Virus record (IMG/VR): IMGVR_UViG_3300009682_000001
Direction: 5' to 3' (one strand)
DNA: 31,888 nt
From: a virus
Position numbers and translations under genes: made by a program. Shown piece after piece: positions 1,422 to 28,980 of this stretch (its first letter is position 1; every line of letters starts with the position of its first letter). Below the pieces are notes generated by a model. The model had not been told where the DNA came from and searched no databases. It worked only from the letters and a program-made list of their open reading frames with translations.

Positions 1422-1771
1422 GCCTAGACAATGAATACCCTACTAGGGAGCAATTACAATCATTGCTAGATTTTGAGGGTACACCGGCAGAATTCATAGA
1501 GCATATCAATGATATGTGGTGGGCAGATGGCTTTACTGTAAAAAATGGGCGTGATAACTTCCGTAAATCAGTAAAGCGTTGCTACCTAAGCACTTGGGGA
1601 TGGTCCGGTAATGAGGATATAATTAGTGTGCTGGATCAAACATGGTTTTGGATGATGTGGTGGCGCGTAAGCAGGCGCGGCGGTCATTATGAGTTTGAAG
1701 TACCAGCAGATCAATTTAATAAAAAATTCCAGTTTGCAATGGGATTACCACATTCAAAGGTAGTGCAATGA
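1418..1771 (+). CDS. Hypothetical Trp-rich protein
   Basis: 117-aa ORF with ATGA overlaps at both ends. Confidence 0.6.
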   Translation: MSLDNEYPTREQLQSLLDFEGTPAEFIEHINDMWWADGFTVKNGRDNFRKSVKRCYLSTWGWSGNEDIISVLDQTWFWMMWWRVSRRGGHYEFEVPADQFNKKFQFAMGLPHSKVVQ

Positions 1772-2316
1772 GTGAGCCAATATTTACATCAGACTGGTTT
1801 AGCAATAACATACCCCACTGGCAACGCCATATAGATGCTACAAAGCCAATGGACATACTAGAGCTAGGCGCATTTGAGGGCAGATCAGTAGTATGGATGC
1901 TTGAAAACCTAAACGTAAAGAGCCTAACCGCAGTAGACTGGTGGGATCAGGAGTGGCTTGAAAACAAAGGGCATTTTAATACTGAGCAAAACTTTGACCA
2001 TAATATTAAGCCCTACAAGAATGTAAAAAAGGTTAAAACATCCACATACGCATTCCTACGCAATGACCGGTCCGCTTATGACCTGATATACATTGACGGT
2101 GCGCATGACGGCAAGAGCGTGCTGACTGATGCTGTAATGGCTCACTATAAGCTCAAAAAGGGTGGCTACCTAATCTTTGATGATTACAGCCAGTCTACTG
2201 ATCCTAACCGCATAGACCGCCCTAGAGGTGCTATTGATGCCTTTATGAAGCAGTTTAGTAATGAATATAAAATTTTATATAAGGGCTATCAGCTGATGGC
2301 TCAAAAGGAGTCCTAA
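1768..2316 (+). CDS. Class I SAM-dependent methyltransferase (Methyltransf_24 / O-methyltransferase-like)
   Basis: ILELGAFEGRS matches motif I (ExGxxxG). IYIDGAHD and GGYLIFDDY are typical of this family. Confidence 0.7.
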   Translation: MSEPIFTSDWFSNNIPHWQRHIDATKPMDILELGAFEGRSVVWMLENLNVKSLTAVDWWDQEWLENKGHFNTEQNFDHNIKPYKNVKKVKTSTYAFLRNDRSAYDLIYIDGAHDGKSVLTDAVMAHYKLKKGGYLIFDDYSQSTDPNRIDRPRGAIDAFMKQFSNEYKILYKGYQLMAQKES

Positions 2317-2317
2317 T

Positions 2318-2566
2318 ATGGATAAGAAGCAAGATAAATTAGTGGTAATATTGCAAGAGAGCGTAATAGCATCACTCATAAAGGATGCTGGCACATTCCT
2401 GCTATTTGGCGGTCTGATGTACTTTAATCACCGTGTACTAGCTGGTAACGGCTGGATTGACTTTGTATTTATACTTATAGTGTTTATGTGGCTATCAAGC
2501 CGTAATATGAGCAAGGTATTTACTGGTCCAAAATCAGAAGCTATTAAGTGGCTACAAGATAAGTAA
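2318..2566 (+). CDS. Small membrane protein with two predicted TM helices
   Basis: 82-aa ORF with AAGGAG upstream. Hydrophobic stretches are AGTFLLFGGLMYF and WIDFVFILIVFMWL. Confidence 0.6.
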   Translation: MDKKQDKLVVILQESVIASLIKDAGTFLLFGGLMYFNHRVLAGNGWIDFVFILIVFMWLSSRNMSKVFTGPKSEAIKWLQDK

Positions 2567-2668
2567 GATGCTGGTGCGCCCTCCAAAATGGGAGTTAATA
2601 CAGTTAAATGGCTTGTTATGAGCAAGCAGCAGCCAGTACCATCTACATGTGAGGTGTAGTTTAAAGCT

Positions 2669-2699
2669 AAAAAGCCCCCGTTGTTGAGGGGCTTTTTGG
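2669..2699. terminator. Bidirectional rho-independent terminator between convergent operons
   Basis: AAAAAGCCCC-cgttgttga-GGGGCTTTTT, with an A-run on one side and a T-run on the other. Confidence 0.85.
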
Positions 2700-2700
2700 T

Positions 2701-3342
2701 TTATATATAAATCTCTTTTCTAGTCCATAGCACTGGTCCAGTAGCTGTGCGGTGTGCTACACGCGGCTCTGGGCTTATTGCTTTGCCGTGACCAGGCAAA
2801 AGGCTATCAGTATCATCATCATGGTCTATAAGGCTAGGAATGCAGTAATAAACGGGCAATCCCTGCCTACAATAGAATTCACCAATCTTATTGTCATATT
2901 GCAGCTCAATGCCCTCTACAAAGTCCAGCATTGGCTTGATCTGATTACTAGGCAGTGCAATACCTACGCCCCAGAAAAGTGTATGATGCCTAAGCCACCA
3001 TCCATCATGTGCTTTATTAACAGCAGCGGTGACGCGCCGTGCCAGTGGTCTAGCAGTGCCGGTATATAGGCTAATAAGCGTATCTTTTCTAAGCGCAGTA
3101 ATAGCATTTACCAGATTGTCATAAAAATGAGGTGTTAATATGGCATCATCCTGTATTACTACATGCCAATCACCTTTATTGATACCGGCTTGCAGCGCAC
3201 GCTTGCCAGTATGCCACTCTTCATTAACCTTATCCCATGTGATAGAAGCTTTGGCAAAAGGGTACTGCTTAAGCTCTTTGAGTAGCGCATTTGCAGCCGC
3301 TTTACGCTTAGGATGTGCCATTACTGTAACGGTAATTTTCAC
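2701..3342 (-). CDS. GT-A fold glycosyltransferase (family not resolved)
   Basis: 213-aa ORF with VVIQDDA as a DxD-like motif. Its GTG start forms a GTGA overlap with the upstream gene. Confidence 0.5.
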   Translation of the reverse strand: MKITVTVMAHPKRKAAANALLKELKQYPFAKASITWDKVNEEWHTGKRALQAGINKGDWHVVIQDDAILTPHFYDNLVNAITALRKDTLISLYTGTARPLARRVTAAVNKAHDGWWLRHHTLFWGVGIALPSNQIKPMLDFVEGIELQYDNKIGEFYCRQGLPVYYCIPSLIDHDDDTDSLLPGHGKAISPEPRVAHRTATGPVLWTRKEIYI

Positions 3343-4019
3343 TTTTCCACCGCCGCTTTTACGTTTTCAAAATCGCTTGGGTAGTCAATGTCGTTTGTTT
3401 CATCATCTATAACTATGTAATTATCAAGCCATTTTTTGTGCTTATTCATTTGGCCAATAGGTACATTTGCCATAAGCCGGGTTAATTCCCAGCCGCCTAT
3501 GCGATCAACAACATCAGCACGGTACAAATGCACCAGCCTATTAAGGCAGTACATTACAAATTCATGGTCCACCGGGTAAAAGCTTAATGCAAAGCACTCG
3601 CCATACGGGTAGTTAAAGCGCTTATTGCCCGTTGGCCGGCAAAACATGCGGTATAGCGGCGTTTCATCGGCAAGTATGGTGTCTATGGCCTGTTCAGTAA
3701 AATAAACGTCCCCATACATTACGATGGTGCGCTTTTTCTTGGCCCATAAGCTACTTGATGAAATGAATTTGTCGGCATCGTGGTTGTCGGGATTAAGCTT
3801 TGGCCGGTATGCGTGTACGCCTGGTATCTGGTAGCCTTTTGAAACGACCCAAACATCGTCTTGGCCGCGTTCAAGCAATAGTCGCACAATACGCTGTATG
3901 ATAGGCTCGCCGTTTATAACAGCATAATGCTTTGGCACGCCCATGTAGTTACCCCACCGCGTGGCGTCCCCGGCAGCAATGATTATAATTCTTGGGTTAT
4001 TTGTGCCTAAACCATGCAT
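3339..4019 (-). CDS. Nucleotidyltransferase that would activate a sugar phosphate or alcohol phosphate (NTP_transferase / cytidylyltransferase-like)
   Basis: IIIAAGDATRWG fits the AAGxGxR signature, followed by PKHYAVINGEPII and YGDVYF. GAGGT lies 8 nt upstream of ATG 4019. The track start at 4034 is a TTG. Confidence 0.6.
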   Translation of the reverse strand: MHGLGTNNPRIIIIAAGDATRWGNYMGVPKHYAVINGEPIIQRIVRLLLERGQDDVWVVSKGYQIPGVHAYRPKLNPDNHDADKFISSSSLWAKKKRTIVMYGDVYFTEQAIDTILADETPLYRMFCRPTGNKRFNYPYGECFALSFYPVDHEFVMYCLNRLVHLYRADVVDRIGGWELTRLMANVPIGQMNKHKKWLDNYIVIDDETNDIDYPSDFENVKAAVEK

Positions 4020-5400
4020 TGGTGCGTACCTCAAACTTTTTAAATAGTGACGTTACATGCCGGCCATATTCAATAGCCTCGGCATACTTGGTGTGCATTA
4101 GTTTATTAAATATGCCCATATCTGTTTGGTCCTGTGGGTATTCCAAGTGGTATTGGTACATATCTTGGCATAGGGCCATTACAAGCTTGCGCTCACCACC
4201 AACCACACCGCAATTAAGCAATGGTAGCGTGCCATTTTCACGTAGGTACCTATTAACGGTTGGCTCAAGGTGCCGTACCAACATCCACCTATTATTTAGC
4301 GTTTCAGCCGGCTCATCGCCAACATACAGCACACCCGGCTTAATGTGGGCAAATGGGTTGGCTACCATATCAACATCGGTAGCGTCCACCACGAACACAT
4401 TATTTATGTCGCGCCGGTCCCGTAGGTATTGCCACTCCTTTAGCCAGCGTTCAAAGTATGGCGTGGTTGATATGGTTACTTTATTTGGCAAGTCAAAGCA
4501 ATTATGTATTAACACAAATTCTATGCCCTTGGCCTCAACAGATCGCTTTAGCTTTTCTATCTTGGTAAAGTCGGCAGCCCATTTGGTGTTGCGTTGTGGG
4601 TCAAGTACGCCGGCAAAGTAGCAGGCTATTACAACGTCCTTGCCATAGGGTATGTATTCATTTGAAGCAGCGGCCGCGGCCAATAGCTCGTTATTCTTTT
4701 GTAGGTATGTGATCCGGTCGGCGCGTGCAATACTACTGGCCACAAGCTGGTGTTGGTCCATTGAATAAATAAGTTGCTCACTACCCACCACATCCATGTG
4801 CTTAAAAGTAGTTAGCCCGGCATTGTGTATACGGTTAGACCAGTCAAGGTGTTCATTCATGGCCTTACCATAGCGCGTGTCCATACCGCCTACCGTTGCA
4901 AGTGCCGTGCTATCAACGTACAGCATACAACCCCGGCTATGGTGGTGCGCCACAACGTTGGCGTCCTTATACACTATGGCATCGTCACCCACCGGCTTGC
5001 CGCTTGCCCAATTTTCAAACAGGTACATTAAATGGTGTTCAGGACTGGCCACGTATGGCTCATGCCAGCCCGGCTTTAACGGGTATGTATCATCGTCAAA
5101 TAAGAATATATGATCGCAGTCGCTAAGTAATTCAAGGCATTTGTTTTTGGCCCGTGCAATACCTACATTGTTTTTGAAGCGGTACACTTGCACGCCGTCA
5201 ATGGTTACTGGCTGTGCGCTGGCATCGTCCACTACTACAATTTTAGCGCCTGGTGTGTGGGCCTGTATGGTAGCAACCGTGCTGGCCACTAGCTTATTGC
5301 GGTTGTGTGTCGTGACGCCAATGCCAATGCTTTGTGTTTGCACGGCACTTGCTTTTATATAACGTTCATTGTTTATTAGTACGTCCAAGTTATGTTCCAT
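3997..5400 (-). CDS. Two-domain glycosyltransferase: N-terminal GT2 domain plus a C-terminal nucleotide-diphospho-sugar transferase-like domain
   Basis: The N-terminal part has GIGVTTHNR...IVVVDDAS...FLFDDDT (GT2 with DxD). The C-terminal part has VVDATDVDM and LNCGVVGG. Confidence 0.65.
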   Translation of the reverse strand: MEHNLDVLINNERYIKASAVQTQSIGIGVTTHNRNKLVASTVATIQAHTPGAKIVVVDDASAQPVTIDGVQVYRFKNNVGIARAKNKCLELLSDCDHIFLFDDDTYPLKPGWHEPYVASPEHHLMYLFENWASGKPVGDDAIVYKDANVVAHHHSRGCMLYVDSTALATVGGMDTRYGKAMNEHLDWSNRIHNAGLTTFKHMDVVGSEQLIYSMDQHQLVASSIARADRITYLQKNNELLAAAAASNEYIPYGKDVVIACYFAGVLDPQRNTKWAADFTKIEKLKRSVEAKGIEFVLIHNCFDLPNKVTISTTPYFERWLKEWQYLRDRRDINNVFVVDATDVDMVANPFAHIKPGVLYVGDEPAETLNNRWMLVRHLEPTVNRYLRENGTLPLLNCGVVGGERKLVMALCQDMYQYHLEYPQDQTDMGIFNKLMHTKYAEAIEYGRHVTSLFKKFEVRTNAWFRHK

Positions 5401-5648
5401 TTCTTATGACTAAAACAAGTATACAACATGGCTTGCGGCTTGGCATAGAACCCCCCACCGCACAAACAAAACATATATAATTTTTTGCAAATCAATTTAA
5501 TAATATTTTATTTTTCAATAACCTTGCAGGGGCGTCAAATAACAGGGGGGGAGGGCGCCCTTTCTTTACGCCAGCTAGACTCCGCCGTGTAAATGCCGAA
5601 TTTTGGGGGGTCTTTCTGACATTAAAATTCTGGCAGACTGATTTTAGG

Positions 5649-6179
5649 CTAAATGCGTGTCCAGGTTCTACCCTGTTTGATAGCTTTTACTATATGGTAG
5701 GTGGTATCCACTGCAGCCGCAATGTGTGTCATTGGCATATCAGTTTTTAGCAAATGCTTAATAGCTCTGGCTTTGATTTCATCTATCTTTGACTGCCAGT
5801 GTTCTGATCCGTACCGCTGATTGTTACGTCCTAGATTATAAGTGTGCTTATTATTCTGCTTGATAGTACACCACTCAAGGTTAGAGATTTGATTATTAGT
5901 TACGTCAGCATCTAAATGGTTTACAGCTGGGTAATTATTGGGGTTAGGTATGAAGTGAATGGCTACAAGCCTGTGCGCACGCCAGTATTTTGCTTTTCCT
6001 AATTTGCATAGTCTTACATACATATAGCCGTCAGTGCCGCAGTATTGCTTGAGTAATTTACCTACTCTTTTTCTGGCAACACCACCACTCATAACCATTC
6101 TAGGCACTGATCTAACTTGCCCCATGTTACTAATTTGATAGTAGCCTTTATAGCCCTCTATATCTTTCCATACTTCCAT
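5649..6179 (-). CDS. Free-standing HNH homing endonuclease (NUMOD4 plus HNH_3 plus C-terminal helix-turn-helix)
   Basis: WKDIEGYKGYYQISNMGQVRS matches NUMOD4. HRLVAIHF...VNHLD...NNQISNLEWCT..QN matches HNH_3. AGAGGT RBS is present. Confidence 0.85.
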   Translation of the reverse strand: MEVWKDIEGYKGYYQISNMGQVRSVPRMVMSGGVARKRVGKLLKQYCGTDGYMYVRLCKLGKAKYWRAHRLVAIHFIPNPNNYPAVNHLDADVTNNQISNLEWCTIKQNNKHTYNLGRNNQRYGSEHWQSKIDEIKARAIKHLLKTDMPMTHIAAAVDTTYHIVKAIKQGRTWTRI

Positions 6180-6226
6180 AATGTACCTCTGATTATTAAC
6201 AACACCATTTTAGCACAGCAAACTTA

Positions 6227-6235
6227 TGGTAAAAT
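6227..6235 (+). promoter_or_regulatory. Extended -10 element TGgTAAAAT
   Basis: It lies in the divergent gap between the HNH gene and the neck gene. It ends 7 nt before ATG 6243. Confidence 0.4.
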
Positions 6236-6242
6236 AATGCTT

Positions 6243-6578
6243 ATGAAAGGCATGACCGTAACATTTATCAAAAAGGTTGCTGCCGGTACGGATGATTTAA
6301 ACAATCCTACCTACACTACCCAGAGCATCAGCATTGATGATGTGTTGATTGCGCCAATTACTGAGCCAGCCAATGCGCGTGAGACTCAGGCGCTTGAGCA
6401 GCAACGGGATCAAGTCCGGGTGCATCTGCCAAAAGCTACCAATCAGGATATTAGTGACTCTTCATTTGTTTATGACGGCAAGACATTCAAGGTGGATAGT
6501 GATAGTGTTAAGTTTATGGATGAAAACACCCCCACGCGGTGGAATAGGTACTTAAGGGCGGAATGTGTAAATGGATGA
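6243..6578 (+). CDS. Head-tail joining (head-closure type) neck protein
   Basis: The pattern matches head-closure or minor capsid neck proteins: GTDDLNNP, LIAPITEP, YDGKTFKV, NTPTRWN. The start is uncertain (6237, 6243 or 6252). The track start at 6117 overlaps the HNH gene. Confidence 0.5.
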   Translation: MKGMTVTFIKKVAAGTDDLNNPTYTTQSISIDDVLIAPITEPANARETQALEQQRDQVRVHLPKATNQDISDSSFVYDGKTFKVDSDSVKFMDENTPTRWNRYLRAECVNG

Positions 6579-6930
6579 TGTAGAGGTAATAGTCATAAAC
6601 TGGCTTAACAGCATACTAGGCGCTGACTGGTCAGCTAGTGGCAATAAGCCAAAGAATACGCCAGACAAATATGTGCTGGTAGATCGCACCGGCGGTCCGC
6701 GTGTTGCTATGGTGTTGGATGCCGCGCAGATACTCATTGAGGTGTACCACAAATCTAGCCGGTCAGATGCAAAGACCAAAGCCAATGAGATTGCTGACCG
6801 CGTGCCAGAGCTAAAAGCCTACGCCCATAATGTCACCACCGCACAGGTTAATTCTGTTGTTCATTTACCTGACCTAATTACCGGCTATGAGCGCTATCAG
6901 GTCTACTGTGATATAGCGGTACGGCGCTAG
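6571..6930 (+). CDS. Tail terminator / tail completion-like neck protein (DUF3168-like)
   Basis: 119 aa, with 8-nt overlap coupling to the previous gene. Call is from size, position and the general sequence pattern (VLVDRTGGP...ILIEVY...YQVYCDIAVRR). Confidence 0.45.
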   Translation: MDDVEVIVINWLNSILGADWSASGNKPKNTPDKYVLVDRTGGPRVAMVLDAAQILIEVYHKSSRSDAKTKANEIADRVPELKAYAHNVTTAQVNSVVHLPDLITGYERYQVYCDIAVRR

Positions 6931-6942
6931 CGCATAAAATAC

Positions 6943-6972
6943 TTGTTCAATTAAAAATACTTATGGTATATT
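6943..6972 (+). promoter_or_regulatory. Promoter upstream of the scaffold and capsid genes
   Basis: TTGTTC, 18-nt spacer, TGgTATATT. The leader that follows has a GGGGAAGAGGGG RBS. Confidence 0.5.
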
Positions 6973-7031
6973 AGTAGCAAGTCAGAAAAACGGTTTAACT
7001 CACCGGCTCAAATGAAAGGGGAAGAGGGGAA

Positions 7032-7508
7032 ATGGCTGAATACTTTAAAAAAGACGGCGAAAACTATGTGCCAGTAGAAGATAAGCTACTGTCACAAGAA
7101 GAGGTAGATAAAGTTGTTGAGTCACGCCTAGAGCGTCAGAAAAAGCAATTTGCGGACTATGACGATCTAAAAGAAAAGGCTGGCAAACTGGACTCTATCA
7201 ACGCGGAATGGGAAACGAAGCTTAAGACAGTGGGTGATGAAAAGTCAGCCCTGGAAAAAGATTTAGCTTCTGCAAAGCTTGAGACTGTAAAGATCAAAGT
7301 TATGCACGAATTCAAGTTGTCTGATGACCTGTCTGAATTCATTAACGGAACTGATGAGGACACAATCCGCAGCCAGGCTGAAAAGCTATCAAAGGGTGTG
7401 GGCGGTGCATCAGTGAAGATTGATAAGACACCAAAGCCAGAGGATAAAAAGAACTCTGACATTAAAAAGGTCACTAAGGGATTGTTCAGCAAGAATTCTG
7501 ACGATTAA
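7032..7508 (+). CDS. Capsid scaffolding protein
   Basis: 158 aa, highly charged with coiled-coil character, immediately upstream of the major capsid gene. Confidence 0.7.
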   Translation: MAEYFKKDGENYVPVEDKLLSQEEVDKVVESRLERQKKQFADYDDLKEKAGKLDSINAEWETKLKTVGDEKSALEKDLASAKLETVKIKVMHEFKLSDDLSEFINGTDEDTIRSQAEKLSKGVGGASVKIDKTPKPEDKKNSDIKKVTKGLFSKNSDD

Positions 7509-7543
7509 AAACCATTTTAATTGTTATAAGGAGAGACCATATT

Positions 7544-8461
7544 ATGGCTTCTGCAACCCCCCTACGCACTAACGTGCTTAACCTAGCAAACCACCAGGGT
7601 AAGACATGGCGTAAAAATATTAGAGGTGGTGTTTTGGCTAAGCTTACCCCAGGTGAGCCAGAGCTAAAAGTAGGTAGCACAGATCACTTTGTGTTTACCG
7701 GCACTCCAAAGGCTCAGTTAGTTGGTGAAAGCGCTACCAAAGAGTCAATGAGTGGTGTACCTGGTAAGAAAACGGTACGCACCTACAAAGTGCAGATCAC
7801 TTACCGCTTTAGTAACGAAGTCCAGTGGGAAGATGAAGATTACCAGACTCAAATTGTTGAGAACTTGGTAGCTAATGCTGCAACAGCTATCAGCCGCGCC
7901 CTTGACTTGCTTGCAATTCATGGCGTAAACCCTGCTACTGGTGATACTGGTGCAGTCACTGATTACTTCAATAAGAGTGGTAATGACGTACACCGCGTTA
8001 CCCGTACTGCTGATGCACGGGCAGACATTGAAAGTGCTGCATCATTGCTGCAAAGCAGTGGCTACACAGCTACTGGTATTGGATTTGATCCAGTATTTGC
8101 AGGTCAGCTTGCACGCTCAAAGGATCAGGACAAGCGCCCACTCTACCCAGAGCTTGGACTTGGCTTTGCCTTTGACAACTTCCAGGGCTTAAATGCCGCT
8201 TCTAGCGACACTGTATCTGGTAGGCAAGAGCTTGATTCTGAAGATGCAACCCTTAATGCCATCATGGGTGACTTCAACGCATTCAAGTGGGGTATCGCAC
8301 GCGACATGCCACTTGAGTTGATTGAGTACGGTGATCCAGACGGTAATGGTGACCTTAAGCAGACTAACGAAGTTGCAATCCGCGCTGAGTCAGTCATTGG
8401 ATTTGGCATCATGGATGACACAGCATTTGCGCTTATTGACGGCGTAGTCCCTAGCTCCTAG
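7544..8461 (+). CDS. Major capsid protein (HK97 fold, no delta domain)
   Basis: 305 aa with AAGGAG RBS. It follows the scaffold gene and is followed by a terminator. Phage_capsid-like sequence pattern. Confidence 0.85.
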   Translation: MASATPLRTNVLNLANHQGKTWRKNIRGGVLAKLTPGEPELKVGSTDHFVFTGTPKAQLVGESATKESMSGVPGKKTVRTYKVQITYRFSNEVQWEDEDYQTQIVENLVANAATAISRALDLLAIHGVNPATGDTGAVTDYFNKSGNDVHRVTRTADARADIESAASLLQSSGYTATGIGFDPVFAGQLARSKDQDKRPLYPELGLGFAFDNFQGLNAASSDTVSGRQELDSEDATLNAIMGDFNAFKWGIARDMPLELIEYGDPDGNGDLKQTNEVAIRAESVIGFGIMDDTAFALIDGVVPSS

Positions 8462-8483
8462 TAGCTAGCATCCTAAAAGTAAA

Positions 8484-8507
8484 AGCGCTCCATACGGGGC
8501 GCTTTTA
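8484..8507 (+). terminator. Rho-independent terminator after the capsid gene
   Basis: AGCGCTCC-atac-GGGGCGCT followed by TTTT. Confidence 0.75.
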
Positions 8508-8510
8508 TTA

Positions 8511-8519
8511 TGGTAGAAT
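8511..8519 (+). promoter_or_regulatory. Extended -10 element TGgTAGAAT
   Basis: It sits immediately after the terminator and ends 6 nt before ATG 8526. Confidence 0.4.
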
Positions 8520-8525
8520 AAGGTT

Positions 8526-8789
8526 ATGGCAAAAAAACTATATCCATTTGTAAACAAATACTCTGGTGAGGTCAAAATATTGACCAAAAGCAGCGGTAAG
8601 AAGCTCAGTGAAGATTGGGCTAGGGCTAAGATGGCTGTTAATGACAAGGGTGAGGATGTATTTAGATTTAAAATAGCCACATCATTTGTTGATAAAAACG
8701 GCAAAACTCAGACTGGCACAGCCATTGTAGATATATCCGAAGTAGAAGCCGCAGAGGTAGCAGAAGATGGCAACGGAAGCGCAGCGTAA
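8526..8789 (+). CDS. Hypothetical protein
   Basis: 87-aa ORF within the head module. Confidence 0.55.
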   Translation: MAKKLYPFVNKYSGEVKILTKSSGKKLSEDWARAKMAVNDKGEDVFRFKIATSFVDKNGKTQTGTAIVDISEVEAAEVAEDGNGSAA

Positions 8790-9075
8790 ATATATTGCTG
8801 ATCTAGCAGTCATTAAGACCAAAGAATTTAAAGAGGTCAAAGAGATGCTGGTAGCCAGTGGCATTGTGGGTGAGAATGCTGAAACAGTGCAAAATGCCCA
8901 GAGCATTGCTGAGATTACCCACGCCCTGGATGATCTGCAAGCTTCACGCTTCATAGATGTACTGATAGCCACCAAAACACCAGCACGCGGCAGGGCTTAC
9001 TCACAGCGCCGGGTAGAGACTACTGTACGGGTGCTGGATGATATTAAAGATACCATTGATAATTGGGAGTTTTAG
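8767..9075 (+). CDS. Hypothetical protein
   Basis: 102-aa ORF overlapping the previous gene by 23 nt. Confidence 0.55.
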   Translation: MATEAQRKYIADLAVIKTKEFKEVKEMLVASGIVGENAETVQNAQSIAEITHALDDLQASRFIDVLIATKTPARGRAYSQRRVETTVRVLDDIKDTIDNWEF

Positions 9076-9078
9076 GGA

Positions 9079-9621
9079 ATGGATTACGCCAAACTAAACC
9101 GCACCATATTAGCTAAGGTAATGGCAGCACTCAAGCTGATAAATAACCCAGAGATTGACCCTGAAATACGCCAGCTTAATCAAGAGATATTATTTAGGGA
9201 AGTGGGCGCAGCAGTCTATGCCAAAGTGTATGACATGAATGCCTTTGACTTTGAGATTGAGTATACACGCGGTCCAGGCATTGATGATAGATACTTGGGA
9301 TTAGCTAAAGTGGCATCAGCAAGTGTTGCCACCGGCACGCTGGGGCTTGATGAATATGTTAAAAACTACCTAGATCACGTAGCAGCTAAAGCTCAGTATG
9401 ATGCAGCTGTAAATGCTAAGCAGTCTGGCAAGCGCACTGTGGTGATCCGTAAGACAAACGGTGAGACCTGCAAATGGTGTACATCATTAGCTGGTACATA
9501 CGAAAACCCAGACAGTGAAGTATTTAGACGGCATGGTGGCTGTGATTGCTCAATCATCACTCAGGGCTACCGCAGCCGTAATGGATTACTTAATAACTAT
9601 GTCAAACCAAAAGACCGCTGA
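9079..9621 (+). CDS. Minor head protein, short form of the MuF / SPP1 gp7 type
   Basis: GETCKWCTSLAGTYENPDSEVFRRHGGCDCSI matches the conserved Cys/His signature at the C-terminus of MuF-like head morphogenesis proteins. Confidence 0.6.
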   Translation: MDYAKLNRTILAKVMAALKLINNPEIDPEIRQLNQEILFREVGAAVYAKVYDMNAFDFEIEYTRGPGIDDRYLGLAKVASASVATGTLGLDEYVKNYLDHVAAKAQYDAAVNAKQSGKRTVVIRKTNGETCKWCTSLAGTYENPDSEVFRRHGGCDCSIITQGYRSRNGLLNNYVKPKDR

Positions 9622-9973
9622 GATAGTCCTAGAGGGTAATGTACCTAGCAAAAAGAATTCACGAATAAACCTTAAGTCAGGTGTATCAATTCCGAACAAT
9701 AAATTTGTTCAATGGCAAAACATGGCAATCATAGAAGTGCGCCGTCAGACTAGGGTGCGCTTTTATAAACCGGTCCAGCTTGAGGTGATTATATATTTTG
9801 CGACATTAGGAAAAGCTGACCTAGATAATAGATTAACCAGCATTTTGGATATGTTAGTAGAGTCCTTAGTGATCCGTGATGACAAATGGCAGGATGTACC
9901 GCTTATTAAAGTGCAGGCAGAACACCGCCCCCGGCAACCTGGCGCATTTATAAGGCTTACAGAGATAGACTGA
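9599..9973 (+). CDS. rusA: RusA-family Holliday junction resolvase
   Basis: VPSKKNSR, then ADLDNRLTSILDMLVESLVIRDDKWQDV (the DxDN...D..V..DD signature). ATG 9599 is in frame with track ORF 9515. Confidence 0.7.
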   Translation: MSNQKTAEIVLEGNVPSKKNSRINLKSGVSIPNNKFVQWQNMAIIEVRRQTRVRFYKPVQLEVIIYFATLGKADLDNRLTSILDMLVESLVIRDDKWQDVPLIKVQAEHRPRQPGAFIRLTEID

Positions 9974-9989
9974 CGTTGCATTGCACTTA

Positions 9990-10016
9990 TGCTACAATGA
10001 CAATATCTGATATAAT
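9990..10016 (+). promoter_or_regulatory. Two tandem extended -10 elements upstream of the portal gene
   Basis: TGcTACAAT at 9990-9998 and a perfect TGaTATAAT at 10008-10016. Confidence 0.45.
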
Positions 10017-10081
10017 ATCATCAATATAAATCTACGCGTACGGCGCGGCAAATACCGGCTTAAAAGGATCAGCAATAGGAA

Positions 10082-11419
10082 ATGCAGCCGGAACAAAACC
10101 CAATCGTAGATCACGCATACAGATTAGCAAACAAGCTGATCTATTGCCTGGAGTCAAAGCAGGCAAAAGTCCAGGACAAATATGACTATTACAACGCTGA
10201 TAATGATGTGCCAGATTTTGGCATATCTACCCCTATGCGTATGCGCAAATTACGCCCTGGCATTGGCTGGGCAAGCCGCGCAGTTAATACACTAGGTGAC
10301 CGTGTAGTATTTGAGGGCTTTGCTAAAGACACATTTGGCATCAATGAGCTACTTGAGCAAATCAATGGATTTAGCGTGCTGAGCAAGGCAAAAGATGATG
10401 CCCTGATTGCTGGCTGTGCATTTGTGGCTGTGGCTGATGATGAAAACGGTAACAAGGTACTCATACCATTCACAGCGCAAGAAGCTACTGGTGAGATTGA
10501 CCAGACTACTGGACTGCTTAAGTGGGGCTTGGCTGTTACTAAATGGCATATCCCTAAGCCTAAAAAGCCTGGCATCATGTATGCACCAAAAGACTATATT
10601 GTATTTACTCCTGACTTTACATTTGTATTTGAAAACCGCAGCTTAGTAGAAGTAGTACCAAACCCTACAAAGCGTACCCTGTTGCATCCAGTAACGCGCC
10701 GGGCAAGCGCTGACCGCCCACTAGGTAAATCACGCATTACAAACACTGCACGCAGGATCATTAACGAAGTAGGGCGCATGAAGCGCCGCCTAGAGATTGC
10801 GGAAGAGTTTTATGCTATGCCACAGCGCTACATTACTGGTCTGGCTGAGGGTGCTGAAAAAGACCCTACTATGGACAGTGCCATAGGGCGCGTATGGGCA
10901 ATTACCCAGGATGAAGAGGGCAATAGCCCTGATATTGGACAGCTACCACAGCTGAGCATCCAGGGCTTTGAGACCAGCAAAAAAGATAAAGCCCGTGACT
11001 TCTGTGCTGAGACTGGACTTACCATGCGTAACCTGGGCTATGAGACTCAAAACCCATCAAGCGGTGAGAGCCTAGTAGCAATGTCAGATGATCTGTTATT
11101 GGAAGCTCAAAAAACCCAGGAAGAGATGGGCAAACAATTCAAAGAGATTTGTATTACCCTACGCCTGGCACTCAATGGCAATGATGAAGTACCAGCGCAC
11201 CTCAAAGAGATTATACCGGCATTTAAGCCAATCTTTGCGGTAGATATTGGTCCAGCTGGTGATGCAATGTTTAAGCTATTCCAGGCAATGCCAGAACTTG
11301 TAGGCACTGTTGAGGGCTACCGCATGCTGGGTATTGGTATTAGGCAAGCAGAAGAGCTTGTGCAGAAGCGTCAGCAGTTAGGCGCAGCAAGCTTTATGAA
11401 TAATGGAGGGCAACAGTAA
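10082..11419 (+). CDS. Portal protein (SPP1 gp6-like)
   Basis: 445 aa. The N-terminal YYNADNDVPDFGIS...IGWASRAVNTLGDRVVFEGF pattern is typical of Phage_prot_Gp6 portals. Confidence 0.8.
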   Translation: MQPEQNPIVDHAYRLANKLIYCLESKQAKVQDKYDYYNADNDVPDFGISTPMRMRKLRPGIGWASRAVNTLGDRVVFEGFAKDTFGINELLEQINGFSVLSKAKDDALIAGCAFVAVADDENGNKVLIPFTAQEATGEIDQTTGLLKWGLAVTKWHIPKPKKPGIMYAPKDYIVFTPDFTFVFENRSLVEVVPNPTKRTLLHPVTRRASADRPLGKSRITNTARRIINEVGRMKRRLEIAEEFYAMPQRYITGLAEGAEKDPTMDSAIGRVWAITQDEEGNSPDIGQLPQLSIQGFETSKKDKARDFCAETGLTMRNLGYETQNPSSGESLVAMSDDLLLEAQKTQEEMGKQFKEICITLRLALNGNDEVPAHLKEIIPAFKPIFAVDIGPAGDAMFKLFQAMPELVGTVEGYRMLGIGIRQAEELVQKRQQLGAASFMNNGGQQ

Positions 11420-11871
11420 TGGCAGGCGTAACTACACCGGTAGTATCACCAAACCCATACGCTAATGCGGATGATCTAGCGGCTTTTTGGCGTACACTCA
11501 CAGAAGCCGAAGCCAGCCGTGCTGATGATTTGCTGACGCGTGCCAGTAACCGCTTACGGCTCACCGGTGAGCGCGTAGGTGTTGATGTTGATGACAAGGT
11601 TAATAACAGCCCTGCATACTTCTCTACTGTCCAATGGGTAGTCATGGAAGCCGCTAAGCGTGCCATGCTTACGCCTATTGATGCGCCACCAGCAAACAGC
11701 ATCCAGCAGACTGCCGGTCCATACTCTGAGAATATTGTATTTACTAACCCTGCTGGTGATCTGTGGTTTAAGAAGTCAGAGCTGCATGATCTGGGGCTTT
11801 ACGGCAACCAGACATTAAAAGGCTTAAGTACTAGCCAGCGTGATATATATAGCCCTTATGAAAGCTCATAG
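11419..11871 (+). CDS. Head-tail adaptor (Gp19/Gp15/Gp42-like)
   Basis: 150 aa with a TAATG overlap with the portal gene. Contains YANADDLAAFWRTLTEAEASRADDLLTRAS. Confidence 0.55.
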   Translation: MAGVTTPVVSPNPYANADDLAAFWRTLTEAEASRADDLLTRASNRLRLTGERVGVDVDDKVNNSPAYFSTVQWVVMEAAKRAMLTPIDAPPANSIQQTAGPYSENIVFTNPAGDLWFKKSELHDLGLYGNQTLKGLSTSQRDIYSPYESS

Positions 11872-11873
11872 CC

Positions 11874-12194
11874 ATGCTAGAATTATTTGCATCTACCACT
11901 GCCAGTGATCCGGCAAACAATGTATTTAGCTATTACTTCACTCAGGGCGTGCTAGGCATAACGGTGATAGTATTGATCCTAACGGTCCGCTTTATGTTTA
12001 CCTACTACAATAAGAAGCTTGATGACAAAGACCTCAAGATTGAAGCGTTGCAAAATGCCCGGCTTGATGACAATAAAACTCATACAGTGGATTACCGTGA
12101 GATGGCGAAAAATGACCAGGCGGTACTGTTAGGAGTTGCACAGTCTCAAGAGCTACTTAGTGGTAAAATAGAAGCCGTAAAAGGCAGGCGGTAA
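11874..12194 (+). CDS. Single-pass membrane protein with a C-terminal coiled coil, possibly BhlA/UviB holin-like
   Basis: TQGVLGITVIVLILTVRFMFTYY is followed by a KKLDDKD charged region. Confidence 0.35.
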   Translation: MLELFASTTASDPANNVFSYYFTQGVLGITVIVLILTVRFMFTYYNKKLDDKDLKIEALQNARLDDNKTHTVDYREMAKNDQAVLLGVAQSQELLSGKIEAVKGRR

Positions 12195-12501: not shown

Positions 12502-13059
12502 ATGAATGACTCCAGTAACGTGTCATTTGGTAAGCCAAAAGCCACCGGTGCGCTTTTTGTAGCGCCTGCTGGTACTACACTGCCTACTAACGCCACTGAT
12601 GAGCTAGATCCAGCTTTTAGCGGCTTAGGTTACGTCAGTGATGAGGGCTTGGTCAATGGTGTAGAGACAGATGTAGAGGATGTGTATGCGTGGGGCGGTG
12701 ACAACGTGTTGTCAGGTCAAACCACCTACTCTGAAAACTTTACATTTAATCTCATTGAGACCAATTTAGAAGTAGCGAAGTTGTACTACGGTGAGGATAA
12801 TGTCATTGAAGATGGCGGAAACATCACAATCAAGGCAAACAGCAAGCCGCTGCCAGAGATTGTGTTTGTAGCTGAGCTGGTACTTACCGGCAACCGCGTA
12901 AAGCGTGTTGTGGTAGGGCGTGGTCAGATCGCAGATCGCAGTGGCGAAATCACTTATGTAGATGGTGAGCCGGTTGCATATCCAATCAACCTACGCGCTT
13001 ACCCAGATGCAGACGGTGACACTCACAAAGAGTACATCACTACAATCGCATCATCTTAA
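12502..13059 (+). CDS. Major tail protein (phi13 / TP901-1 type)
   Basis: 185 aa with FGKPKATGALFVAPAGTTLPTNATDELDPAFSGLGYVSDEGL. A strong terminator follows, then the chaperone gene pair. Confidence 0.8.
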   Translation: MNDSSNVSFGKPKATGALFVAPAGTTLPTNATDELDPAFSGLGYVSDEGLVNGVETDVEDVYAWGGDNVLSGQTTYSENFTFNLIETNLEVAKLYYGEDNVIEDGGNITIKANSKPLPEIVFVAELVLTGNRVKRVVVGRGQIADRSGEITYVDGEPVAYPINLRAYPDADGDTHKEYITTIASS

Positions 13060-21733: not shown

Positions 21734-22876
21734 ATGTCTTATTCAGTACGCCAATATCCAGCCAGTAGCGCTAACTACGATACCAGCCGTAAAACAATCA
21801 AAAAGATTATAATTCACCACGCCGCCAGCACCAGCTTTGACAGTATTGGTCAGGTATTTGCTAATCCTAGCAGGGGCGCATCAGCTCACTACGGTGTAGG
21901 GCGCAATAACAATGTGGATCAGTATGTGCCTGAAAAATTTACCGCGTGGCACTGTGGTAATTATCCGGTTAATCAAGAGTCCATAGGTATTGAAAATGTG
22001 AACTCTACCGGCGCACCTAACTGGAATGTAGCGGATGAGACAAAGAATACTCTAGTAGAGCTTTGTGCTGACATTTGCCGCCGTAACCCTAGCATTGGCA
22101 GATTGCAGCCAGGTGTAAACCTATTTGGTCACAAGCAAGTAGCAGCGCCAAATAAGCCTACCGCATGCCCTATGACACTGATTGACTTCCTGCCAGAACT
22201 TGCACGGCGCGTAAATGCCCTGCTAGACAGCGGTAGCGCCCCACAGCCTACACCACAGCCACAGCCAGGTAAAAAGACTAATGAGCAGATTGCAAATGAA
22301 GTATTAGCTGGTCAATGGGGTAATAATCCGCACAGGCGTAATGCTCTTATTGCCGCTGGATATGACTACAATGCTATACAGGCTATTGTGAATGGTAAAG
22401 TGGGTAACCCTACTACTGCACCGCGTAAGAGCAATGAAGTCATTGCAAACGAAGTACTTGCAGGAGCATGGGGTAATGGGGATGACCGGCGCAACCGGCT
22501 CACGGCAGCTGGATATGATTACCGCACCATCCAAAACATTGTCAATCAAAAAGTGGCTGGTAGCCCTACACCATCAAAGCCAGCACGCCTGAGCAATGAG
22601 CAAGTGGCGGATCAAGTACTAGCTGGCGCATGGGGTAATGGTGATGATCGTAAAAACCGCTTGAGTGCAGCAGGTTATGACTATGGCGCGGTCCAGGCTA
22701 TTGTTAATCAGAAGTTAGGGCAGGGTGTATCTGGCAAAAAGTCAAATGACCAGGTAGCCAATGAAGTCATTGCTGGCAAGTGGGGTAATAACCCTGAGCG
22801 TAAGCAGAAGCTCATAGCAGCAGGGTACGATTACAACGCAGTCCAGGCATTAGTAAACCGTAAATTAGGAGTATAG
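21734..22876 (+). CDS. Endolysin: N-acetylmuramoyl-L-alanine amidase (Amidase_2/PGRP) plus four CW_7 cell-wall-binding repeats
   Basis: IIIHHAAS...AHYGVG...AWHCGN...IGIEN is the amidase_2 pattern. A PQPTPQPQP linker follows, then four copies of the motif LAGxWGNxxxRxxxLxAAGYDYxxxQxxVN. Confidence 0.9.
   Translation: MSYSVRQYPASSANYDTSRKTIKKIIIHHAASTSFDSIGQVFANPSRGASAHYGVGRNNNVDQYVPEKFTAWHCGNYPVNQESIGIENVNSTGAPNWNVADETKNTLVELCADICRRNPSIGRLQPGVNLFGHKQVAAPNKPTACPMTLIDFLPELARRVNALLDSGSAPQPTPQPQPGKKTNEQIANEVLAGQWGNNPHRRNALIAAGYDYNAIQAIVNGKVGNPTTAPRKSNEVIANEVLAGAWGNGDDRRNRLTAAGYDYRTIQNIVNQKVAGSPTPSKPARLSNEQVADQVLAGAWGNGDDRKNRLSAAGYDYGAVQAIVNQKLGQGVSGKKSNDQVANEVIAGKWGNNPERKQKLIAAGYDYNAVQALVNRKLGV
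22277..22873 (+). repeat. Four tandem CW_7-type coding repeats (about 45 codons each) within the endolysin gene
   Basis: The repeats start at TNEQIANEV, SNEVIANEV, SNEQVADQV and SNDQVANEV. Confidence 0.85.
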
Positions 22877-23862: not shown

Positions 23863-24345
23863 ATGGCAGAGGTAACTACAAAAGAATATGTGGCTAAGAT
23901 CGCTGATTTAATACCCAGTGAAGAAAACCCACGCAGCATAGGGCGCAAAGAGTATGAAGCCCTAAAAGAGTCACTGGTTGAATTCCCAGAGATGAAGCAA
24001 ATACGCCCCATTGTAATAGATGAGGATAATAATGTACTTGCTGGACACCAGCGGCTGTATGCGTTGCAAGACCTTAACTATGAGGATGTGCTTGTACTGC
24101 AAGTCACTGGACTCACTAGAAAACAAAAACGTGAATTTATGATTAAGGATAACGTCAGCTCAGGTAAATGGGATGCTGATATTATTGCCAATCATTGGGA
24201 GCTGGATGAGCTTGAGCAATTTGGTGTGCCTAAATTCAAAATCCCTGGCGGTGACGGCAGTGGTGGTGAGAAGAGCTATAAAAACCATGAGGTAACTTGC
24301 CCTAATTGTGGTGAGCATTTTGAACTGTCTGAGTCTGACGATTAG
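23863..24345 (+). CDS. ParB N-terminal (ParB-like nuclease) domain protein with a C-terminal zinc ribbon
   Basis: NPRSI...IRPIVIDEDNNVLAGHQRLYAL, then CPNCGEHF. Confidence 0.7.
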   Translation: MAEVTTKEYVAKIADLIPSEENPRSIGRKEYEALKESLVEFPEMKQIRPIVIDEDNNVLAGHQRLYALQDLNYEDVLVLQVTGLTRKQKREFMIKDNVSSGKWDADIIANHWELDELEQFGVPKFKIPGGDGSGGEKSYKNHEVTCPNCGEHFELSESDD

Positions 24346-26972: not shown

Positions 26973-27143
26973 ATGGAAAATGAGCCAAACACAGAAAACG
27001 TACACTACATTGATGAGTACCCACATTTGGAAGAGAAGCTTAGGCTACAACGCCTAGCACGCCCGGCGGTCCGCCAGGCGCTACAAGACATGACTAGGAT
27101 TATCAAATTTGAGCTACCAGAACAGCCTGACGGCATTGCCTAG
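26973..27143 (+). CDS. Possible 56-aa ORF with no SD
   Basis: TGgTATCAT ends 6 nt before the ATG. Product MENEPNTENVHYIDEYPHLEEKLRLQRLARPAVRQ... It is below the track size cutoff. Confidence 0.3.
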   Translation: MENEPNTENVHYIDEYPHLEEKLRLQRLARPAVRQALQDMTRIIKFELPEQPDGIA

Positions 27144-27922
27144 TAGATATAGACAAACTCACTAGGGCTAGCATCACGGTAGGTAACTTTGCCCCAGTGT
27201 GGTGCATTCATCTCACTGATGCGGATAGTGCCATTGTCATTTATGCCCTCTACATACACCACATGCCCTAATGCGCCGCGTGTAGTAGTGCCTACCGCGC
27301 CTTTGGCTGGTGTTGATCCTACTGCCATACCCATAGCGGAAGCACGGGCATACCAGGTATTAGCATTACCCAGACCATTAGGCAGGGATGCGCCCCGGCG
27401 GTTTTTGACGTACCAGGTACAATAACCGTAAGAGTAGGTATTACCACCACCAAAATTGCCAGAAGTGGCTTGTGGGGTAGGTGTAGCTACATTAGGAGTG
27501 ACAGCAGGCAGGCTTACTGCCGCAGGTATCTCACGCTCAAGCTTTTCATCTGCCAGTGGGATAGTGATTTTATCACCCACATGGATTAAGTCAGGGTTAG
27601 TAAGCTGGGTGTTTTTAGCCCATAGGCGTTGCCAGGTGACATTATGAGCCGTGCCAATCTTAGTGAGATTGTCACCATCTACAACCGTATAAACTACCGG
27701 CTCTGATTTAACCGGCTCTTTTGGCTCTTCTTTGACTGGTGGTTTTGTATCTTCTTTTTGTGGTAGCTGTATCTGTGGTGTGTTTGATCTCTGGTAATTC
27801 AAGTTTAGTATTGATCCAATATCATTGTTTTGATTAAAGAATATTGGATTTGCCGCAGCCGTTGCAGGTGGTGTGACCATAAAAGTTGCTGTGACTGCTG
27901 ATGTTAATATTAGAGTTTTCAT
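27140..27922 (-). CDS. Secreted peptidoglycan hydrolase: signal peptide, LysM domain and CHAP domain
   Basis: MKTLILTSAVTATFMVTPPATAAA is the signal peptide. YTVVDGDNLTKIG...GDKITIP is LysM. GYCTWYV...GHVVYVEG...ISEMN is the CHAP Cys/His pattern. The start is uncertain (ATG 27922 or TTG 27949). Confidence 0.8.
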   Translation of the reverse strand: MKTLILTSAVTATFMVTPPATAAANPIFFNQNNDIGSILNLNYQRSNTPQIQLPQKEDTKPPVKEEPKEPVKSEPVVYTVVDGDNLTKIGTAHNVTWQRLWAKNTQLTNPDLIHVGDKITIPLADEKLEREIPAAVSLPAVTPNVATPTPQATSGNFGGGNTYSYGYCTWYVKNRRGASLPNGLGNANTWYARASAMGMAVGSTPAKGAVGTTTRGALGHVVYVEGINDNGTIRISEMNAPHWGKVTYRDASPSEFVYIY

Positions 27923-27996
27923 AACGCTTGAGCCTGAAGATAAGGACAATGGCGCGGCTCTGATTTATTACTCCCATAAAGTTAATGACAATATTG

Positions 27997-28470: not shown

Positions 28471-28980
28471 ATGTCTTACAAAGTTAGTGACCAAAGAAAA
28501 CAAACAATGATTACTAAGCTAGGTGACGCGGTGGAACTGATAGACAATCAGGCTTTTTTACCGTTTTACCGGTCCATACAGATCAAGCTTGAGAAGATGG
28601 GCAGGGCTGATGAATGGGGCAAAATGATAGAGGTAGCACTTACTAAAGAGCGCCCTAGTCATTACTTTGCTAAGCTCTGTAAAATGGTCAAAGACGGCAC
28701 ATACAAATTTGTTGAAAAGGTGGCAGAGGTTGCCGGTGAGCTTAGGCTATATGTGCATGACAAGCTTATTAAGTTTGGCTTTGGTAAGTATCAGAAGTAT
28801 TGGGTGCGCAAAGCCCAGGAATTCATTAACGTAAACGGGCAGGCTGGCTTTGTAGAGCTGCTGGAATACGCTGAGCGTAAAGGTATCAATCAAAAATACA
28901 TGGCTAGGGCGCTCAAAAACTGCAAAACACCGCGCCAGTATTACCAGCAAAACGTGATCGGCGCTGGTTATAATGGCTAA
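28471..28980 (+). CDS. Hypothetical protein, first gene after the repeat array. A replication or regulatory role is only a guess.
   Basis: 169-aa ORF with a strong RBS. Confidence 0.6.
   Translation: MSYKVSDQRKQTMITKLGDAVELIDNQAFLPFYRSIQIKLEKMGRADEWGKMIEVALTKERPSHYFAKLCKMVKDGTYKFVEKVAEVAGELRLYVHDKLIKFGFGKYQKYWVRKAQEFINVNGQAGFVELLEYAERKGINQKYMARALKNCKTPRQYYQQNVIGAGYNG

Follow-up and report, generated by a model that had tools for sequence, protein, structure and literature searches.

The window analysed here, 31,888 nucleotides of phage DNA recorded as IMG/VR virus IMGVR_UViG_3300009682_000001, is an essentially complete genome in which positions 1768-5400 hold a locus of five genes, encoding four enzymes and one small membrane protein. 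Judged from the homologies of its enzymes, this locus is probably a phage-encoded cassette for virion O-glycosylation, homologous to the system of the mycobacteriophages Che8 and Corndog. Mycobacteriophages add glycans to the proteins of their capsid and tail tube with enzymes of their own, and Che8 gp110 and Corndog gp38 are glycosyltransferases (GTs) essential for capsid glycosylation, according to PMC12363180, which cites Freeman et al. (2023, Cell Host Microbe 31:1216); Che8 gp108-gp110 are known as a mycobacteriophage virion glycosylation operon through PMC12363180 and PMC11256854. This precedent is one of direct homology and not just of analogy, because the single-domain GT of the locus is related to Che8 gp110 and Corndog gp38, its two-domain GT to Fruitloop gp99, and its methyltransferase to the family of Che8 gp108. 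These homologies lend support to the initial annotation of this DNA, which had preferred mycobacteriophage virion glycosylation among the possible precedents. The phage itself is represented by metagenome contigs only, as part of a clade of related uncultured siphoviruses.

All five open reading frames (ORFs) predicted by the initial annotation were recovered with unchanged coordinates, and the locus comprises the following features:

1768-2316, plus strand: MT182, a methyltransferase of 182 amino acids (aa), whose start overlaps the stop of the upstream ORF
2318-2566, plus strand: TM82, a small membrane protein of 82 aa
2669-2697, between the convergent units: a bidirectional hairpin resembling an intrinsic terminator
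2701-3342, minus strand: GT213, a single-domain GT-A glycosyltransferase of 213 aa
3339-4034 (from TTG, 231 aa) or 3339-4019 (from ATG, 226 aa), minus strand: NT231, a nucleotidyltransferase
3997-5400, minus strand: GT467, a two-domain glycosyltransferase of 467 aa
4651-5337 (about aa 22-250 of GT467): N-terminal GT2-type GT-A domain, with D58-D59 and D102-D103-D104
4000-4650 (about aa 251-467 of GT467): C-terminal GT-A domain, with D339/D342-V-D344
5401-5648, minus strand: upstream region of the GT operon, with a recombination breakpoint at about 5540

GT467, NT231 and GT213 form a leftward operon of successively overlapping genes, which converges on the rightward unit of MT182 and TM82; MT182 is the final enzyme gene of a rightward early operon, and TM82 is probably translationally coupled to it. 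The overlaps of NT231 with both of its neighbours likewise suggest translational coupling. Public gene calls place the start of NT231 at the ATG at 4019, giving a protein of 226 aa, and this ATG is more probably the true start. The hairpin at 2669-2697 (AAAAAGCCCC...GGGGCTTTTT) consists of an A5 run, a GCCCC/GGGGC stem and a T5 run, with strand-wise folding energies of -22.9 and -15.8 kcal/mol and z-scores against shuffled sequence of -5.3 and -4.4, respectively; such folding on both strands is consistent with the shared bidirectional terminator that had been proposed for the two units. Promoter-like matches in the region 5401-5648 were weak only. The DNA of the locus had no near match in the phage collection searched.

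GT213 is the enzyme that most directly links the locus to the mycobacteriophage system. It showed 29% identity to Che8 gp110 over 198 aa by BLASTP, and comparison of the GT213 family with gp110 by hhalign gave a probability of 98.7% (E-value 3e-16, 194 columns). The hidden Markov model (HMM) of the family matched Corndog gp38 at 8.5e-16, and GT213 was 31% identical to Fruitloop gp102. By these alignments, GT213 is assigned to the family of Che8 gp110, Corndog gp38 and Fruitloop gp102. There was no Pfam match; GT213 matched phrog_854 (4e-37), and its AlphaFold (AF2) model, with a pLDDT confidence of 92.4, has a GT-A fold. The structural matches obtained with Foldseek were mimivirus R655, POMGnT1 and GnT-I (E-values from 6e-8 to 7e-6), with PBCV-1 A64R more distant. 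The motif Q64-D65-D66-A67 (QDDA) was invariant, and GT213 was kept in every clade cassette examined that extends to its position.

GT467 was 41% identical to Fruitloop gp99 over its full length (482 aligned positions), and its relatives are found as a glycosyltransferase in several hundred cluster F mycobacteriophages, of which Fruitloop is an example. It matched phrog_1579 at 6e-140, and its N-terminal half matched Pfam Glycos_transf_2 at 2e-7. For the C-terminal domain, no PDB relative was found at the sequence level, family profiles included; PDB searches with single sequences were uninformative for all four enzymes, for which family profiles were needed. The AF2 model of GT467 (pLDDT 87.6) had its best structural matches among enzymes with two GT-A domains, namely PmHS2 (heparosan synthase, 6e-10), K4CP (chondroitin polymerase), COLGALT1 and mimivirus R699, whereas polypeptide GalNAc-transferases matched just one of its domains. 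In an alignment of 51 sequences, the acidic motifs of both halves, including D102-D104 and D339/D342, were invariant. Models and motifs thus bear out the three glycosyltransferase domains of the initial annotation, two GT-A domains in GT467 (one GT2-type, one further) and one in GT213, and the proposed HMM and structure-prediction searches assigned the latter to the gp110/gp38 family.

A different role for these enzymes, the addition of sugar to phage DNA as a hypermodification evading restriction, would fit the match of the GT467 N-terminal domain to Pfam TAGT, the family of TET-associated DNA glycosyltransferases, and the precomputed TAGT matches of many clade homologues. The match in GT467 is weak (E-value 0.019, 15.3 bits) and far under the cut-off of 27.5 bits. 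Moreover, the genome was found to encode no TET/JBP protein, no cytosine-C5 methyltransferase and no dCMP/dUMP hydroxymethylase, every ORF of at least 200 aa being otherwise assigned, and the combination of three GT domains with an O-methyltransferase or pyruvyl transferase suggests that the product is an oligosaccharide and not one sugar attached to a base. We consider DNA glycosylation very improbable, in agreement with the earlier argument that hypermodification was unlikely as no dNMP hydroxymethylase gene was present; among ORFs of at least 200 aa, we also found no hydroxymethylase or TET-type gene.

Comparison with characterized and annotated phages showed that the core enzymes recur in several arrangements. 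Like the window, Che8 encodes a gp110-family GT-A enzyme, additional GT2-type transferases, an O-methyltransferase of the Methyltransf_24/TylF type and an adjoining HNH gene, and its capsid and tail-tube proteins end in serine (Ser). Unlike the window, it has neither a two-domain GT of the gp99 type nor a nucleotidyltransferase, and its methyltransferase forms a fusion with a GT2 domain. The genes of Che8 all point the same way and occupy the right end of the genome; the host is Mycobacterium, and the GC content is about 61%, versus 45% in the window. Fruitloop gp99-gp102 share with the window a core pair, the two-domain gp99 and the gp110-type gp102, placed around a variable gene, but their middle slot contains an APH-family kinase and a small ORF instead of a nucleotidyltransferase. 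In Corndog, gp35-gp38 comprise a methyltransferase, two GTs and then gp38, of the GT213 family, directly upstream of the capsid gene; the partner GTs differ from those of the window, with no match to the GT467 profile, and there is no nucleotidyltransferase.

A GT pair is also annotated, and apparently unstudied, in two cultured Cronobacter phages. ENT47670 encodes a two-domain GT 34% identical to GT467 and a small GT matching the GT213 HMM (2e-15), directly after the major tail gene. ENT39118 encodes a GT of 485 aa, the same length, whose C-terminal domain is 29% identical to that of GT467, followed by an ORF of 196 aa as its putative partner, between the lysis genes and the HNH/terminase genes. 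As in the window, both phages have Ser-terminal capsid and tail-tube proteins; unlike in the window, the host is enterobacterial (Gram-negative) and no accessory enzyme stands between the GTs. The location of the GT genes within or next to late and structural genes in ENT47670, ENT39118 and Corndog counts in favour of virion O-glycosylation. At the fold level only (10-15% identity), the locus further resembles the virion glycosylation clusters of giant viruses, such as the mimivirus fibril cluster and chlorovirus A64R (reviewed in PMC9614988), in which the virus decorates its own particle by combining several GTs with a pyruvyl transferase, methylation and enzymes of sugar-nucleotide metabolism; these are eukaryotic viruses with unrelated acceptors and glycans.

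In 2023, Freeman and co-workers reportedly found the glycans of the mycobacteriophage particles to be O-linked and to lie at the C-terminal ends of capsid and tail-tube subunits. In the window, the proteins proposed as acceptors are the following:

7544-8461, plus strand: major capsid protein (HK97 fold; Pfam Phage_capsid), proposed acceptor, ending in IDGVVPSS
12502-13059, plus strand: tail tube (major tail) protein (Pfam Phage_TTP_17, phrog_117), proposed acceptor, ending in ITTIASS
11419-11871, plus strand: head-tail adaptor Ad1 (Phage_Gp19), possible third acceptor, ending in YESS

The solved relatives of the capsid protein were 8ecn (7e-56) and 3jb5. Within the clade, where capsid identity falls to 54%, a Ser was present within the last two residues of all distinct capsid tails (12/12), all distinct tail-tube tails (16/16) and nearly all adaptor tails (17 out of 18), versus 2 out of 19 for the portal, 1 out of 15 for the scaffold and none of the 17 for p119. 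In the capsid, tail-tube and Ad1 proteins, the final six residues varied while the Ser stayed, and no co-variation was apparent between the type of cassette and the exact capsid or tail-tube tail.

Outside the clade, the capsid and tail-tube proteins end, respectively, in KTGS and SDGS in Che8, in LVGS and KGDS (gp49) in Corndog, in ADES and LDES in Avani, in EATS and EPSS in ENT47670, and in SSGS and AAGS in ENT39118. All five are counted as carriers of the GT pair; Corndog gp49 was taken as the tail tube by size and position, its record giving no function. We compared these five lineages and the window clade with five lineages lacking the pair (Gordonia PhorbesPhlower, P. acnes PA6, Streptococcus Javan221, Lactococcus 50101 and HK97). 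In this small, hand-picked sample, capsid and tail-tube proteins with Ser ends numbered 12/12 in the six lineages with the pair and 2/10 in the five without (Fisher p = 1.4e-4 per protein and 0.015 per lineage). PhorbesPhlower, PA6, Javan221 and 50101 are devoid of the GTs and have homologous capsid proteins, and neither their capsid nor their tail-tube proteins are Ser-terminal; for PhorbesPhlower, profile searches revealed no such GT anywhere in the genome. The adaptors of Che8 and Avani are not Ser-terminal, so Ad1 is the weaker acceptor candidate.

HK97 behaved differently. It lacks the GT pair, and at the site of the pair in ENT39118 it has a KilA-N gene, yet its capsid protein ends in SSGS, as in ENT39118, and its tail protein in TIS. 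Compared with ENT39118, its capsid protein shows 96% identity and its Ad1 adaptor 95%, and both proteins end in GS in each of the two phages. After this control, the rule that terminal Ser occurs in GT-positive phages only was given up, and because HK97 has Ser ends without the pair, we read the Ser signature as permissive and not diagnostic. The initial annotation's idea of C-terminal Ser-Ser acceptor sites is consistent with these comparisons: the VPSS and IASS ends were verified and the Ser is conserved in the clade, but the feature is not specific.

Several observations weigh against virion O-glycosylation as the function of the locus. Besides the size and hand-picking of the lineage sample and the Ser ends of HK97, no clade member clearly lacks the cassette, leaving cassette and Ser tail inseparable within the clade. 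The GT operon is transcribed divergently from the structural genes. The closest relative with a nucleotidyltransferase-type cassette (L006) is devoid of both MT182 and TM82. Finally, wall teichoic acid is another possible substrate for soluble GT-A enzymes of phages, as in the precedent of TarP. The HK97 tails and the missing contrast within the clade would equally suit a cassette that acts elsewhere, for example on a minor component of the virion (e.g., a receptor-binding protein), on a protein of the host or on a small molecule, with the Ser tails as coincidental family traits. We regard such a target as unlikely, given that the Ser was kept over 12 capsid and 16 tail-tube tail variants despite changing flanks and that Ser ends were present in all six GT-positive lineages.

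The most divergent clade member (L034, IMGVR_UViG_3300031853_000345), whose capsid protein is 54% identical to that of the window, has the tails KASA (capsid), TLSA (tail tube) and IYGE (adaptor). Its contig is partial, and the 8 kb that it covers upstream of the capsid gene contained no GT467 or GT213 homologue.

Among the accessory enzymes, NT231 carries the sequence AAGDATRWG at residues 20-28 and matched Pfam NTP_transf_3 with 32.3 bits (cut-off 27; E-value 1.4e-7), in keeping with the nucleotidyltransferase with an AAGxxxRxG signature that had been annotated. Its family profile matched LicC (1jyk, 2e-8), ST0452 (9e-8) and then GlmU and an inositol-1-phosphate cytidylyltransferase in the PDB, and a TarI-like ribitol-5-phosphate cytidylyltransferase was also among its closest solved relatives; the alignments shown to these structures cover the N-terminal half only. 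All NCBIfam matches were far under their cut-offs, the best being IspD with 20 bits versus 181. NT231 is thus classified by its profile matches as a LicC/GlmU/IspD-like enzyme without an equivalog-level substrate assignment, and the HMM searches that had been suggested for its substrate class came out negative. The description of the locus as self-contained was overstated in this regard, with the substrate of NT231 not assignable and no sugar kinase, mutase or epimerase genes encoded.

MT182 matched Pfam Methyltransf_24 at 3e-16, as expected from its annotation as a class I S-adenosylmethionine (SAM)-dependent methyltransferase. Its profile matched cation-dependent O-methyltransferases in the PDB (best 4ymg, 1e-8), and some of its multi-domain relatives (21 scanned) were fused to GT1, GT2, GT25, GT61, GT92 or sulfotransferase domains, one or two each. 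In Che8 gp108, a Methyltransf_24/TylF domain, of the same Pfam family, makes up the C-terminal half and is fused to a GT2 domain. A homologue 33% identical to MT182 stands within the GT operon of the relative L016, and the first gene of the Corndog operon encodes a methyltransferase with a weak match to the MT182 profile. From this pattern of matches, MT182 is a probable class I SAM-dependent O-methyltransferase acting on sugar. The PHROG label "DNA methyltransferase" was dropped in favour of O-methyltransferase, based on the PDB profile matches and the fusions to GTs and sulfotransferases. A match in PADLOC was to a generic methyltransferase only, and membership of a defence system was rejected.

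TM82 has two hydrophobic helices, of which that at about aa 42-60 is clear and that at about aa 23-37 is weaker. It had no family match in Pfam, PHROGs, NCBIfam or PADLOC, and among the relatives compared it occurred on window-type contigs only. The case for MT182 and TM82 as parts of the glycosylation system is circumstantial, and the membership of TM82 is uncertain. A comparable order of genes was observed in Streptomyces phage Yara, where gp28-gp31, downstream of a hypothetical protein of 1,293 aa, include a nucleotidyltransferase flanked by a GT and a methyltransferase, with a small membrane protein next in order. Unlike in the window, the GT of Yara is a Glyco_trans_1_2 protein and its methyltransferase an FkbM protein, neither being homologous to the window enzymes. 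Yara gp31 (L057, 5781-5993) is a two-helix protein that follows the methyltransferase as TM82 does, with no detectable sequence similarity to it; the parallel may be a coincidence or an unrecognised component.

The nature of the host and of the accessory genes bears on a further explanation, in which the enzymes modify a polymer of the host envelope, for instance wall teichoic acid or a polysaccharide of the cell wall, against superinfection or the re-adsorption of progeny to lysing cells. The host is of a Gram-positive type, as indicated by the endolysin (21734-22876), which combines Amidase_2 with four CW_7 repeats, and by a second peptidoglycan hydrolase encoded apart from it (27140-27949, minus strand), a secreted protein of 269 aa with a signal peptide, LysM and CHAP. 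In addition, NT231 has among its closest solved relatives LicC, TarI-like and inositol-1-phosphate cytidylyltransferases, which feed decorations of the teichoic-acid type; a membrane protein of 82 aa adjoins the locus; and soluble GT-A enzymes of prophages that act on teichoic acid are known. However, annotation of the genome's ORFs with Pfam and PHROGs detected no integrase or repressor, so that this is not an obvious setting for lysogenic conversion, and the matches included no GtrA/GtrB/GtrC-like or polytopic membrane partners, TM82 being the sole membrane protein near the locus. The core enzymes are instead homologous to those tied to virion glycosylation, and the same pair is present in Mycobacterium, Cronobacter and clade phages, whose hosts' envelopes have no common polymer and which share Ser-terminal capsid and tail-tube proteins. 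On balance, an envelope target appears quite unlikely.

Under the preferred reading, virion O-glycosylation, the composition of the cassette would determine the glycan displayed, and this composition was found to be variable. GT467 and GT213 form the conserved core of the cassette, around a middle slot which is occupied by a polysaccharide pyruvyl transferase (PF04230) in at least 13 out of 16 IMG/VR relatives, by a Methyltransf_23 enzyme and an HNH gene in one relative, and by the Methyltransf_24 enzyme described above in L016. Protein clusters numbered 45 for the nucleotidyltransferase and 337 for GT213, by which count the nucleotidyltransferase-type cassette is a minority form. In the phage database, the only relatives of NT231 were from 9 Streptomyces phages (33-36% identity), with the gene beside a GT in each. 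As far as these comparisons go, NT231 is an optional accessory in a variable cassette slot.

Exchange of the cassette was apparent from the relative L010, which by blastn was 99.1% identical to the window at the DNA level over 5540-12126 and had no match leftward. To the left of about 5540, L010 consists of unrelated sequence encoding a GT only 39% identical to that of the window, and the junction between the two indicates, from this alignment, a recent cassette swap.

About where the identity with L010 stops (5540), the window contains a G8 run followed by a palindrome, GGGCGCCC (5533-5562). Many independent assemblies of relatives (L012-L015, L019-L022, L039 and L043-L047) break at the same place, corresponding to about 5400-6117 of the window, with one end approximately 60 nt upstream of the p153 homologue and the other 130-240 nt upstream of the GT467 homologue. 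This shared break suggests physical genome ends or a segment that is hard to assemble; if genome ends lie there, the GT cassette would be at the genome end, as in cluster F mycobacteriophages.

The folds, homologies, gene arrangement, cassette swapping and conserved Ser-terminal tails described above are the basis from which we infer an acceptor, a reaction order, donors and a biological benefit. During infection, soluble cytoplasmic enzymes would assemble an O-linked glycan on the capsid (...VPSS) and tail-tube (...IASS) proteins, and possibly on the Ad1 adaptor (...YESS), with a Ser at the free C-terminus, or adjacent to it, as the attachment site. GT213 would act as the conserved core enzyme, and the tandem GT-A domains of GT467 would carry out two further glycosyl transfers. 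NT231 would use an NTP to activate a phosphorylated sugar or alcohol, yielding a donor that may be missing from the host's own supply. MT182 would O-methylate a sugar. With a nucleotidyltransferase in the exchangeable slot here, and a pyruvyl transferase or methyltransferase in relatives, near-identical phages could display different glycans.

The 2023 study of phage virion glycosylation reportedly described it for mycobacteriophages only, with little evidence in other phages, and our literature search yielded nothing useful on further glycosylated virions of bacterial phages. What is new here is the presence of a module of the Che8/Corndog type in an abundant uncultured clade (its core enzyme forms more than 300 protein clusters), with a nucleotidyltransferase as accessory and with cassette exchange. 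Sequence homology ties the mycobacteriophage system to this clade, to cultured Cronobacter phages and, via the nucleotidyltransferase, to Streptomyces phages. We put forward, tentatively and as somewhat less than an even prospect, that virion O-glycosylation is a mobile phage module crossing phyla, made up of a gp110-family GT and a two-domain GT and targeting the C-terminal Ser of capsid and tail-tube proteins; its carriers may include a large clade of uncultured siphoviruses of about 32 kb, the cluster F and O mycobacteriophages and enterobacterial phages. If so, virions that are otherwise identical would differ in glycan "serotype" according to whether the exchangeable slot holds a nucleotidyltransferase, pyruvyl transferase, methyltransferase or kinase, which would imply selection on environmental phage surfaces that is unrelated to antibodies. 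Should the virion O-glycosylation reading be correct, phage particles in general would have glycan coats, and could exchange them rapidly, with a bearing on phage stability, recognition by host and immune system and the design of therapeutic phages, and the locus would provide a compact enzyme set for C-terminal O-glycosylation of proteins.

Contigs of 31.9-32.2 kb with identical copies of the locus were present in two assemblies from ENA and one metagenome-assembled genome (MAG) from NCBI, and one relative joins sequence homologous to both ends of the window. The gene set is that of a siphovirus, with an SPP1-type portal, Dit, Tal, a tape-measure protein and TerL; no tRNAs were found in the genome. 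The best matches of the capsid protein, GT and nucleotidyltransferase were in actinophages, and those of TerL in phages of Bifidobacterium, Faecalibacterium, Streptococcus and Lactococcus. Lysin and terminase matches were split between phages of Actinobacteria and Firmicutes and gave no host genus. The only match in genome collections was a phage-sized contig binned into a Luteolibacter MAG, and this binning is probably spurious.

Between the GT operon and the structural genes lies a homing-type endonuclease gene with NUMOD4 and HNH_3 domains (5649-6179, minus strand). HNH genes adjoin the glycosylation genes in Che8, ENT39118 and L040 as well, and in L048 one is located inside the cassette. 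The relative L018 carries an insertion of approximately 3.3 kb (1661-4950 of that contig), between the p119 homologue and the scaffold gene, which has no counterpart in the window. The window also encodes an N6-adenine methyltransferase of the Dam family (28973-29443) and a protein with a ParB-like nuclease domain (23863-24345); DNA methylation is thus present, and is unrelated to the glycosylation locus. Finally, the order of genes at 7032-11419 is unusual, with the scaffold and capsid genes before the portal gene and a RusA resolvase (9515-9973) between them, and TerS/TerL are located another 13 kb on, past the lysis genes.

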